Assembly: GCA_038046385.1 (NCBI GenBank)
Contig: JBBSWH010000001.1
Coordinates: forward strand, 64,001-128,000
DNA from: Nanobdellota archaeon
GTDB lineage: Archaea > Nanobdellota > Nanobdellia > Woesearchaeales > GW2011-AR4
Direction of reading: 5' to 3'
DNA length: 64,000 nt
Shown here: positions 14,287 to 37,398 of the stretch, piece by piece
Numbering within the stretch: the stretch's first letter is position 1
Layout: every line of letters starts with the position of its first letter
Position numbers and translations under genes: made by a program
Notes under the pieces: generated by a model
Told to the model about the DNA's origin: nothing
The model's database searches: none
What the model saw: only the letters and a program-made list of their open reading frames with translations

Positions 14287-14706
14287 ATGCAGCCGTTTGA
14301 AATAATAATTTTTGGAATGCTTTTGTTGGTGGTTTTGTATATTGGATATTTAATCGGAAAATTTGTTGCAAAAAGCAAAATACCGGAGATCAGAGAAACT
14401 GCGATAAAGCATTCGAGAGCAGTTCTTGCAGGCCAGTTCAGCGAGCAGATGTCGCCTTACCTTCCCGGATTCGGGCACAAGCCGACAGAGGCAAGATTCA
14501 TCGGCAAGCCGATTGATTTCATAGTCTTCAAGGGGATGGACGAGAAGAAAATTGAAGACGTAATCTTTGTTGAAGTCAAGAGCGGACAAAACAAACTTTC
14601 AGAAGTGCAGAAAAGCCTGAAATCAGCAATTGAACAGAAAAAAGTCTCGTGGCACGAATATAAAGTGCCGGAAAATGTTACGAACAGCGATGGGAAACAT
14701 TTATAA
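14287..14706 (+). CDS. Holliday junction resolvase-like endonuclease (Endonuc_Holl)
   Basis: SRAVLAGQFSEQ..PY, FIGKPIDFIVF, FVEVKSG. Confidence 0.88.
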   Translation: MQPFEIIIFGMLLLVVLYIGYLIGKFVAKSKIPEIRETAIKHSRAVLAGQFSEQMSPYLPGFGHKPTEARFIGKPIDFIVFKGMDEKKIEDVIFVEVKSGQNKLSEVQKSLKSAIEQKKVSWHEYKVPENVTNSDGKHL

Positions 14707-14733
14707 ACAATACCAGTTTTCATTTTCAATAAA

Positions 14734-15024
14734 ATGATGGAACAAGCAAGACCGTTGGACGCATTGAACAAGGCAAGGGACAAGAGAGTAATCCTTGAGC
14801 TGAAGAACAACAAGCAGTACATCGGGAAATTAAAGTCATTTGACATTCACGTTAACGTTGTGATTGAAGATGTTGAAGAGTACGAAATAAAATTCAAAAA
14901 AATATCTAAAAAAATCGATGAAAACACAACTGAAGAGTTTACAACAACAGAAACATTGCTAAGGAGAAAGCTTGGCTCAGTTTTTATAAGGGGAGACACA
15001 ATAACAGTTATTTCAACAGAATAA
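14734..15024 (+). CDS. Sm-like archaeal protein (LSm/SmAP)
   Basis: RPLDAL, GKLKSFDIHVNVV, VFIRGD; upstream of rpl37e as usual in archaea. Confidence 0.92.
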   Translation: MMEQARPLDALNKARDKRVILELKNNKQYIGKLKSFDIHVNVVIEDVEEYEIKFKKISKKIDENTTEEFTTTETLLRRKLGSVFIRGDTITVISTE

Positions 15025-15040
15025 AATTTCTAGGTGCTTA

Positions 15041-15152
15041 AATGAAAGGAACGCATTCAACTTTTTGCAAAAAACTTGACCAAAAGCATGAAAGTGCTAT
15101 ATTTGCTTCGCAAAATAGCACGAGAGGGCTACAATGAAAGGAACGCATTCAA
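15041..15152 (+). repeat. 20-bp direct repeat AATGAAAGGAACGCATTCAA flanking a 72-bp two-hairpin insert at the rpl37e start
   Basis: Exact copies at 15041-15060 and 15133-15152. Confidence 0.9.
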
Positions 15153-15313
15153 TGGGGAAGAAGTCCGGCAGCAAGAACATGATATACTGCAGGCGCTGCG
15201 GGAAAAGAACTTTCAACCTTGGGGCAAAATGGAGATGCGCTTCATGCGGATTCGGCATGAGCAAGAAGCTTCGCGGTTACAAATGGCAGAAGAAGCCAAA
15301 GAAGATTTCTTAG
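15134..15313 (+). CDS. rpl37e: 50S ribosomal protein L37e (59 aa, not in ORF track)
   Basis: MKGTHSMGKK..CRRCG..CASCGFG..LRGYKW. Confidence 0.95.
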   Translation: MKGTHSMGKKSGSKNMIYCRRCGKRTFNLGAKWRCASCGFGMSKKLRGYKWQKKPKKIS

Positions 15314-15367
15314 AAAGTTTTCAGCAACCTTTTTAAAGCAAGTTTATATCTTATTTTTTACATTCAT

Positions 15368-15499
15368 GCGGAGGTGCCGGAGTGGCCAAACGGGATAGGC
15401 TTAGGCGAGGCATCTTTTTGGTGTAAAGAGCCGAAAGGCAATGACTTTGAGACACCTATTAGCTTAGTGCTTACGCAGGTTCGAATCCTGTCCTCCGCA
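15368..15499 (+). tRNA. tRNA-Leu(TAG) with 48-nt intron at 37/38 (15406-15453)
   Basis: GCGGAGG/CCTCCGC acceptor, ATAGG/CCTAT anticodon stem, long variable arm, A73, BHB (CUUA/UGAG). Confidence 0.93.
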
Positions 15500-15675
15500 T
15501 TCATTTTCATTAGTGGATTCACAATCCACGACTGCGTAGCATGGTTTCTTTGGTCAAGCTTTCTTTTTATAAAGAAAGGTTGGTGGGAACCCTTACTCCG
15601 CATTCATTTTCAAATGCATAAATTTTATAAATAACCATATTTTCACAAACAAAATATGGAGAAGGGTGCAACAAA

Positions 15676-15894
15676 ATGGCAAGAGAAAAAGTAAAAAAAC
15701 TAAGCGTAAAGAAAGAGAGATATCTTAAATTCAGGAAGGAAAAGCCTCCGATGACCTTCACAGTGCCTGATCTTACAGAACAGCAGGTTGCAGAAAGAAG
15801 GGTAGATGAGCAGCACATCGGACAGTTTTGGAAAGGCTACAGAAGGCCGCCTGAAAGGTTCGTAAGCGAAAGAAAAGCAAAAAGCAAGCGATAA
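15676..15894 (+). CDS. Small basic hypothetical protein
   Basis: GGGTG SD, ATG start. Confidence 0.65.
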   Translation: MAREKVKKLSVKKERYLKFRKEKPPMTFTVPDLTEQQVAERRVDEQHIGQFWKGYRRPPERFVSERKAKSKR

Positions 15895-16006
15895 ACCTCA
15901 TTTTTCTGTTATTTTTTTCTATTCCAGTATACTGATAACTATACCAATAATACAAAACTTTTTAAATCATTTTTGATTTTAAAATCATACGTGGGGGTGT
16001 TTATAC

Positions 16007-27246: not shown

Positions 27247-27603
27247 ATGCGCGGGTACAAGGTTCTAAACGGCAAGATAGTCATAGGATTAGAGGAAAAA
27301 GTCAGAGTACACCATTCTTTAGGAAACAAGACTGTGACTGCAAAGATAGACACGGGCGCTACAAAAAGCTCTATTGATACAAACCTTGCAGCTGAACTCA
27401 AGTTAGGCCCAGTTATAAAATCAAAACTCATTAAATCAGCGCACGGCTCAAAATTAAGGCCGATAATTGAAGCTACAATCGAGATGGCCGGCCAAAAGAT
27501 AAAGTCAGAGTTTACTTTAGCTGATCGTGCGCATATGAAATATCGCATTCTTATCGGACAGAATATCCTAAAGGAAGGATTTTTGATTGACCCCTCACAA
27601 TGA
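27247..27603 (+). CDS. RimK-associated retropepsin-like protease
   Basis: AKIDTGATKSSID, FTLADRAHMKYRILIGQN. Confidence 0.88.
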   Translation: MRGYKVLNGKIVIGLEEKVRVHHSLGNKTVTAKIDTGATKSSIDTNLAAELKLGPVIKSKLIKSAHGSKLRPIIEATIEMAGQKIKSEFTLADRAHMKYRILIGQNILKEGFLIDPSQ

Positions 27604-27722
27604 AAGCAATAATAAAAGTTGACATGATTTGTGCTCTCGAAGAGAGTACATTTTTGATGAAACTTTTTCGTAAAAAGTTTCCCGGTGTCAACGGACGGAA
27701 CCGCTGATGAAAGCAGCAGTAA
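27600..27722 (+). repeat. Structured insert with duplicated rimK start (ATGAAAGCA..) encoding a coupled 35-codon leader ORF
   Basis: GTTGACA/TGTCAAC stem enclosing two hairpins; ORF 27600-27707. Confidence 0.75.
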
Positions 27723-36705: not shown

Positions 36706-37398
36706 TTAATTCACCTGTTGACTAGTCTCAAGGAAAGCCTTTATTTTTTCAGTTAATCCACTGAGATGGCTTTCTTTCTCTATCTTTCTTATTGCGTTGA
36801 TTGCCCTCATCTCATTGACAGGGGATCCTTCAATCCACACAAGACCGTTCTGGCCGACTGTGATGTTGCACTGTGTTGCTTCTTTTATCATCATGACCAT
36901 TGAGCCCTGCTTGCCGATTATTCTCGGAACCTTGTGCGTGCTGACTTCAATTATCCTTCCGCCCTTCAATTTTCTCAATCCGGGGCCTTTCATTGTAACG
37001 TCTATAAGCTTCTGGCTTGTGACATTTGCAATCTTGCAGACAATATGCTCCCCAAGGTCGTAATACTGCGTAAGGTTTGCGCCTCTTGCAATAAAATCTG
37101 AAGTTGCGTCCTTCATTGACAGCATTGCAGAGTATGCGGAGTTTGTGTCTATTCTCCATCCATTGAATCCAACGTCAATCACTTTGCATATAATGGTGTC
37201 TCCTATCTTTGGCATGTACCTTCCTGACATCGGGATCAATTTTATTGTCCTTCCATCCAGCATAACAAGGCCTAACCTGCCTGCCATTATGCTATCTCCT
37301 TCCCTGTATGTTCCCATACCTGGGAGTATATCCATTCCTGTTCCAAGAATTTCTCCCGGAACTGCTATATCTTTTTCATTAACTGTTATTCCTGACAT
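36706..37398 (-). CDS. rrp4: Exosome complex RNA-binding protein Rrp4
   Basis: S1+KH, VPRIIGKQGSM, GQNGLVWI. Confidence 0.95.
   Translation of the reverse strand: MSGITVNEKDIAVPGEILGTGMDILPGMGTYREGDSIMAGRLGLVMLDGRTIKLIPMSGRYMPKIGDTIICKVIDVGFNGWRIDTNSAYSAMLSMKDATSDFIARGANLTQYYDLGEHIVCKIANVTSQKLIDVTMKGPGLRKLKGGRIIEVSTHKVPRIIGKQGSMVMMIKEATQCNITVGQNGLVWIEGSPVNEMRAINAIRKIEKESHLSGLTEKIKAFLETSQQVN

Follow-up and report, generated by a model that had tools for sequence, protein, structure and literature searches.

The start of the ribosomal protein gene rpl37e is duplicated in this Woesearchaeota genome around a 72-nt insert, which is best explained as a small, non-coding, structured mobile element placed after codon 6 and which, judged by its sequence, is of one family with the tRNA and 16S rRNA introns of the lineage. 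We consider it moderately probable that our explanation holds as a whole, namely a mobile element, a duplicated gene start, expression of the gene by termination and reinitiation, and integration in the manner of an att site. Coordinates refer to the window, the whole stretch of 64,000 nucleotides that was analyzed (positions 64,001 to 128,000 of contig JBBSWH010000001.1), unless a contig is named; the genome is designated G000.

The Duplicated Start of rpl37e

The upstream copy of the start is preceded by a native Shine–Dalgarno run, AGGTG (15029-15033; forward strand, as are all features of this locus), which fits the 16S rRNA 3' end ..GGATCACCTCCT; this anti-Shine–Dalgarno sequence was taken from the 16S rRNA of a congener, the 16S rRNA gene being absent from this assembly. 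Repeat copy 1 (15041-15060), an upstream pseudo-start made of one leader base, rpl37e codons 1–6 and one further base, is identical at 20 of 20 nt to repeat copy 2 (15133-15152) within the intact gene, at a spacing of 92 nt, and the direct repeat stretches to 25 nt at 92% identity from 15036 and 15128. The second ATG (ATG2, at 15134) is the true start, because its open reading frame (15134-15313, 59 amino acids) matches the Pfam family Ribosomal_L37e (PF01907) from model position 1, over positions 1–52 of 53 (E = 7e-17). From the first ATG (ATG1), a leader ORF of 31 codons (31 amino acids; 15042-15137) runs through the insert and ends on a TGA that overlaps the rpl37e ATG as ATGA.

The insert itself (15061-15132) is matched by the covariance model of the family core at 15050-15089 (45.5 bits, E = 1.2e-7). 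The consensus fold of four orthologous inserts contains two hairpins. Hairpin 1 (15057-15079), whose outer stem takes in the final four bases of repeat copy 1, has a stem extension that covaries in other family members; hairpin 2 (15094-15121) has 12 base pairs, with one compensatory pair (U–A to C–G) and one G–U change among the four species. The folding energy of the 151-nt region was no better than that of shuffled sequences (z = 0.08), and an Rfam scan of 14500-16000 returned nothing relevant. The repeat, the AGGTG run, the two-hairpin insert, the 31-codon leader and the ATGA overlap had all been described in a first-pass annotation of this DNA and are all present in the sequence, and the ATG spacing of 92 nt, of the form 3n+2, is read from it directly; that annotation missed a weak Shine–Dalgarno-like run within the insert (15122-15128), 5-7 nt before ATG2.

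Upstream lies an Lsm gene (14734-15024; PF01423), probably in one operon with rpl37e, and downstream an intron-bearing tRNA-Leu gene. The Lsm protein of G000 has 96 amino acids, with about 20 extra residues (encoded at 14880-14950) compared with relatives such as that of locus L035 (about 74 amino acids); the extra segment is apparently also present in G002 (78% identity over the full length).

An Element Family Shared with tRNA and 16S rRNA Introns

The elements share a layout of a terminal CAAC, a first hairpin, a conserved CTTGACCAAAA box, a second hairpin and a GTTG-type end. The first half of the rpl37e insert is the conserved core, which runs from CAAC through a T5/A5 hairpin, whose extension varies and covaries, to CTTGACCAAAA. 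Eleven copies of this core, set apart by a clear score gap in the nhmmer search, are found in the 1.28-Mb genome of G000, where only copies supported by the covariance model or by nhmmer were counted; with the covariance model it is found in 42 of 43 genomes of the genus, at 1–18 copies per genome. The same core forms the 5' end of introns at about position 37/38 in several tRNA types (L127 and other loci) and lies inside 16S rRNA genes (L122, L124). Base pairing in these tRNA and 16S introns joins the terminal CAAC to a GTTG close to the 3' end. The rpl37e insert shares this layout, with a GTTG-type motif only a few bases upstream of ATG2 that is intact in the G015 insert and altered in the other filled loci; the inverted repeat is only 4 nt long. 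This kinship with the tRNA and rRNA introns, all of which the covariance model matches, had been overlooked in the first-pass annotation.

Only 24 tRNA genes were predicted in G000, 18 of them with an intron (aragorn). Several of these introns were placed at odd positions, and many tRNAs were probably missed or have non-canonical introns. In G056, which has 18 cores, units containing the core are repeated head to tail about every 68 nt (L152, L154, L175, and L214), forming short tandem arrays.

No autonomous relative or parent transposon of the element family was found. A Y1 transposase is present in 23 of the 43 genomes of the genus, unrelated to core copy number, and we rejected it as the mobilizer for this patchy presence that does not track the core counts. 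G000 encodes three tyrosine recombinases, none of them linked to an element. A reverse transcriptase was not found in G000 (85% complete), and retro-models are unsupported.

Copies at tRNA 3' Ends and at Other Protein Genes

Loci with a 9–44 nt duplicate of a gene end include tRNA 3' ends and the ends of spt5, secY, and rimK. A second family member of 86 nt lies within the window just 3' of the tRNA-Leu gene (15510-15595, reverse strand), flanked by 17-nt repeats (15493-15509 and 15596-15612) that duplicate the 3' end and trailer of this tRNA-Leu(TAG) (15367-15500, with a 48-nt intron). Other copies of the family are likewise antisense and just 3' of tRNA genes, with repeats of 17–19 nt of the tRNA end, tRNA 3' ends being frequent sites of the elements; at one such end (L141) two different family members stand in tandem between three repeat copies. 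Further copies are located at the start of spt5 (33-nt repeat), behind secY (44-nt repeat), and behind another gene (geneY), where the pseudo-copy keeps its stop codon.

The first-pass annotation had also noted the same design at rimK (27600-27715, forward strand), and this recurrence holds, as it does for spt5. At rimK, 9-nt repeats containing the ATG (27600-27608 and 27707-27715) flank a 98-nt insert (27609-27706) that belongs to a related second element family; the leader of 35 codons is open and ends as TGATG, its TGA overlapping ATG2, and ATG1 still overlaps the stop codon of the upstream gene. At the rimK junction of 30 congeners (L231-L260), the gap to the protease-like upstream gene exceeds 500 nt at its longest and is an ATGA overlap at its shortest. 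Across species this gap holds at least three element types, which marks it as an insertion hot spot.

A scan for duplicated starts covered the whole G000 genome, and the listed pairs were read individually. Two weaker candidates, to be taken as leads only, are C3:31814-31892 and C15:5268-5359 (both reverse strand), with a duplicated start of 12–13 nt and a leader that terminates 15 or 4 nt ahead of the real start codon; the insert at C3 is similar to that of rimK and has GTTG and then a Shine–Dalgarno run at its end. Rejected were a 10-nt repeated start at 37230/37398 (reverse strand) of the window, which is an in-frame internal repeat of an S1-like protein with no insertion, and the pairs C1 159064/159154 and C17 12476/12587, which are internal protein repeats or chance matches. 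Next to a tRNA-Ser gene (C15:15281-15470; L120), interleaved direct repeats of 30 and 32 nt at spacings of 108 and 126 point to a more complex rearrangement of the tRNA 3' region. Nearly identical 74-nt inserts between 16-nt direct repeats 90 nt apart occur at 51900-52005 of the window (C1:115900-116005) and at C6:173639-173744, and may be another element or a disrupted RNA gene.

Filled and Empty Sites and the Origin of the Insert

The rpl37e locus was read in 19 genomes of the genus, G000 and the 18 of 24 congeners with a usable rpl37e locus (the count leaves out G003, G005, G010, G017, G018, and G023). In 14 of the 19 the start is single-copy, an empty site, and a homologous insert is found at exactly the same place in the remaining five (G000, G008, G013, G015, and G024); the comparison with orthologous loci that had been proposed at the outset thus identifies a true insertion into an essential gene. 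A sixth filled species is represented by L052, whose L37e begins with one extra codon. An additional 80 loci were screened for an upstream copy with a pattern fitted to MKG-type starts, which other N-termini could escape. The related records are Woesearchaeota, mostly from groundwater. Insert length at the filled loci ranges from 72 to about 130 nt, with nested extra modules of 42 and 57 nt in G015 and G024, respectively. The inserts of G000 and G008 differ at about 15 of 72 positions (hand count), similar to their flanks, and the Lsm protein of G000 is most similar to that of G002, an empty-site species (78% identity), versus 59% for the filled G008.

The repeats do not behave as a simple target-site duplication, given their lengths of 9–44 nt and the mostly synonymous differences between copies. 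Repeat length differs between sites (9, 17, 18, 20, 33, and 44 nt) and is constant at a given site. About 20 of the 23 codon differences between pseudo- and real copies, counted by hand from printed sequences, are synonymous: five of five in G013, four of four in G024, two of two in L052, one of two in G015, most of those at spt5, and seven of seven at secY, where the copy lies behind the element and keeps its stop. The pseudo-start of G013 equals the real start of G019. In G000 and in G008 the two repeat copies are identical within each genome and carry lineage-specific changes. The prevalence of synonymous differences between copies hints at a homology-guided integration between species.

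An element accompanied by a short copy of a gene end would recombine inside this copy and so integrate as at an att site, which would let it recur at the same site across species and be lost precisely. Several features of the loci are of this type: the direct repeats are gene ends and the gene is reconstituted (rpl37e, spt5, rimK, secY, and several tRNAs), and the copy carried by the element departs from that of the host in the way expected of an orthologue, with stops kept. Against this model, no recombinase is tied to the element, whose small size leaves no room for such a gene, a duplex circle of about 90 bp would be physically awkward, and the identical copies of G000 and G008 with their lineage-specific changes suit a plain target duplication as well.

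Alternatively, a single ancient insertion of the transposon type, with a true target-site duplication, could have been passed on vertically and then lost repeatedly through recombination between the repeats, which gene conversion would occasionally have homogenized. That site, orientation, and composite insert are alike in all six species, that the divergence between the G000 and G008 inserts (about 15 of 72) is flank-like, and that the repeats in these two genomes are identical would all follow from such a history, which we regard as less likely than not. A neutral pseudo-copy should decay at all codon positions, and this reading is therefore disfavored by copy differences that are nearly all synonymous and by the stops kept in the secY and geneY pseudo-copies. 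Repeats of 9–44 nt fall far outside the range of known transposase staggers. The tandem double integration at one tRNA end (L141) and the position of G000, nearest by Lsm to the empty-site G002 (78%) as compared with G008 (59%), also speak against it. Att-like integration seems to fit these observations better than one old duplication of the target, even one followed by gene conversion, and on this point we are less certain.

Probable Translation through the Insert

Insertion at the DNA level would have come with a duplicate of the initial 20 bases of rpl37e, which remains whole by virtue of the downstream copy. Ribosomes starting at the old binding site on copy 1 would then read the open leader across the two hairpins, stop at the ATGA overlap and reinitiate at the true rpl37e ATG, and the Shine–Dalgarno run at the 3' end of the insert may aid reinitiation or allow some direct initiation. 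As far as can be judged from sequence, expression of rpl37e is probably by this termination–reinitiation through the open leader, which is the best supported route and as yet unproven.

The open leader of a single genome is weak evidence, and the case rests on comparative data. When the rpl37e insert was shuffled, 24% of the sequences remained open to within 15 nt of ATG2; the chance of an open leader by shuffling is 0.24 for rpl37e, 0.12 for rimK, and 0.30 for spt5. In all six filled rpl37e loci the leader is open until position +1 or -5 relative to ATG2, ending on the TGA of ATGA in five and on a TAA 2 nt before ATG2 in L052; the filled loci are related, so that six of six are not six independent trials. 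The nested additions of 42 and 57 nt in G015 and G024 are multiples of three and stop-free, and the other two frames bear stops in 27 of 28 frame-cases. Outside the six native codons, the sequence of the leader peptide is not conserved.

In three species, rimK carries the same element type with its two ATGs spaced by 107, 111, and 143 and leader stops at -2, -3, and +1, so that the leader reaches ATG2 in all three though the spacing phase differs; in two rimK loci occupied by other elements the leader stops early. The empty rimK site is an ATGA overlap with the upstream gene, and the leader therefore preserves or restores an existing chain of coupling. At spt5, where starts were located by tblastn and self-comparison (L293, from G045, and L299 could not be scored, and G045 was scored from L172), the leader stop is at most 9 nt from ATG2 in three of six loci and lies at -22 to -29 nt in the other three. 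The earlier proposal of reinitiation is favored by these comparisons, with leaders that end at or near ATG2 in six of six rpl37e and three of three same-element rimK loci; such an ending is lacking at the two other rimK loci and is loose at three of six spt5 loci. The 3n+2 spacing did not prove to be a rule, all three spacing phases being found, and the trait that is kept is a stop near ATG2.

Ribosomes could instead use ATG2 directly by means of the insert-borne Shine–Dalgarno run, the leader being a by-product and its openness incidental or weakly selected. G008, G013, and G024 have a run of the GAGGTGG type that fits the congener 16S 3' end, placed 6 nt before ATG2; the runs of G000 and G015 are weaker. 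With leaders left open in 12–30% of shuffles and leader stops that are early or distant at some loci, direct use of ATG2 has to be considered, and we judge it rather unlikely. The L052 insert has no such run and still has an open leader ending 2 nt before ATG2, the nested 42- and 57-nt additions preserved frame and openness, and the rimK leaders reach ATG2 in three different phases; moreover, the run sits directly 3' of the 12-bp hairpin.

RNA splicing and ribosomal bypassing had been named in the first-pass annotation as alternatives only, and both are disfavored, the former by the missing bulge–helix–bulge motif and the latter by the mismatched copies of G013 and G024. For splicing, the 92 nt made up of the insert and one repeat copy would be cut from the mRNA as a bulge–helix–bulge intron by the tRNA splicing endonuclease. 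The core and end architecture is common to genuine tRNA and 16S introns of the genus, and the genus is rich in tRNA introns (18 of 24 predicted tRNAs by aragorn), both of which speak for the idea. To restore the ORF from ATG1, splicing must cut both repeats at equivalent points, and the 4-bp central helix would thus fall in identical repeats and require a self-complementary 4-mer, which is absent; no bulge–helix–bulge motif was found at rpl37e, the best score at any admissible position in all six filled loci being 7 of 13 pairs. The gene is intact when unspliced, the downstream copy keeping rpl37e whole so that splicing is unneeded, and an intron would not require an open leader. We regard splicing as very unlikely.

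In translational bypassing, ribosomes that reach the end of repeat copy 1 would hop and resume at that of copy 2. The repeats are matched and identical in G000 and G008, and copy 1 evolves in a coding-like manner with differences that are mostly synonymous, but the copies differ at five (G013) and four (G024) of 20 positions, the last codon included. Bypassing, as in phage T4 gene 60, is not known to require an open reading frame through the gap, and here no stop follows the would-be take-off codon and the leader is open throughout. A coding-like pseudo-copy is also found behind secY, where ribosomes should not arrive, and bypassing is, like splicing, highly improbable.

Contigs independently built from four runs of two studies carry the region 14800-15450 with the insert free of differences and joints, some of these runs possibly being the source sample. 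The excised form of the rpl37e insert was found in none of these contigs, which lose rare variants and so leave polymorphism possible. The suggested check of assembly support thus came out in favor of the insert, which is unchanged in the contigs of four runs and has homologues in the assemblies of other studies. An assembly or binning artifact has a negligible probability, given this agreement of independent contigs across the insert and the homologous inserts assembled in other studies.

Implications for Intron Arrival and Genome Annotation

The arrival of archaeal introns at new sites is still unexplained, and a 2026 preprint on Asgard tRNA introns reports several arrival routes tested and none found (10.64898/2026.10.13.758758). 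One family that occurs both as introns of the spliced type in tRNA and 16S rRNA genes and as unspliced, repeat-flanked DNA insertions offers a testable system for such arrival, to which the empty and filled sites among close relatives add. We tentatively propose, and would not call it probable, that tiny intron-derived elements of Woesearchaeota home to the ends of conserved genes, among them a ribosomal protein gene, spt5, secY, and tRNA genes, with a 9–44 nt copy of the target as address, move between species by recombination in that copy, and also serve as genuine tRNA and rRNA introns, those at gene starts being tolerated by means of a leader that hands ribosomes to the real start. If this holds, it would link the arrival of archaeal introns to homology-guided insertion at the DNA level.

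The duplicated gene end together with coupled translation would allow a compact genome, by simple means, to accommodate insertions in essential genes. For annotation, loci with duplicated starts yield spurious short ORFs and may mislead the calling of start codons. A literature search, with supplements outside its scope, found no description of mini-elements of this duplicated gene-end design. We regard intron-related mini-elements that duplicate gene ends as a variation on known themes, namely att-type integration, MITE-like elements, and coupled translation.

Comparison with Known Systems

Integrative plasmids and viruses of archaea, of the SSV1 and pNOB8 types, are described as recombining with the 3' end of tRNA genes (PMC3293823). 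As in the account given there, a copy of the gene end stands as a direct repeat at either border and the gene is restored, mismatches between element and host copies are inherited, and tandem integrations occur (PMC3293823). Unlike them, the elements described here are 60–130 nt long and encode nothing, with no dedicated integrase identified, and they are found also at the 5' ends (rpl37e, spt5, and rimK) and 3' ends (secY) of protein genes.

An "intron transposition" between tRNA genes is reportedly known from the Thermoproteales (Fujishima, in 2010). Our family resembles archaeal bulge–helix–bulge introns in that the same core and CAAC...GTTG ends are spread over tRNA types and 16S rRNA; the occurrence of one core in the introns of several tRNA types and of 16S marks it as an intron family spread over unrelated genes. 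The rpl37e copy differs from such introns in having no splice motif, a long flanking repeat and an intact protein gene.

MITEs, REP elements, and Rickettsia palindromic elements are small, hairpin-forming, non-autonomous, multi-copy sequences that are tolerated in or beside genes. The rpl37e family is likewise small, hairpin-forming, non-autonomous, and multi-copy; its repeats are 9–44 nt long and site-specific, whereas those of MITEs are fixed at 2–10 nt, and, again unlike MITEs, it has terminal inverted repeats of only about 4 nt, a low copy number (1–18 per genome), and no parent transposon that we could find.

Overlapping ATGA and TGATG gene pairs in archaea are reported to be coupled by termination–reinitiation (PMC6728339), and coupling to need overlaps or very short distances (PMC10666635). 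The ATGA of rpl37e and the TGATG of rimK, with the stop at or near the start, resemble these pairs as they are described there (PMC6728339, PMC10666635). The difference from known coupling is that the upstream ORF of rpl37e is no gene, the leader having been made by the insertion from six native codons and element sequence.

Inteins and translational bypass elements are inserts that a built-in trick renders harmless. IStrons and group I introns are described as self-neutralizing insertions (PMC4227781). The rpl37e insert shares with these four systems that a selfish insert in an essential gene is rendered harmless; unlike in IStrons, inteins, and bypass elements, the trick here would be a duplicated gene end with coupled translation, and involve no splicing of RNA or protein and no hopping.
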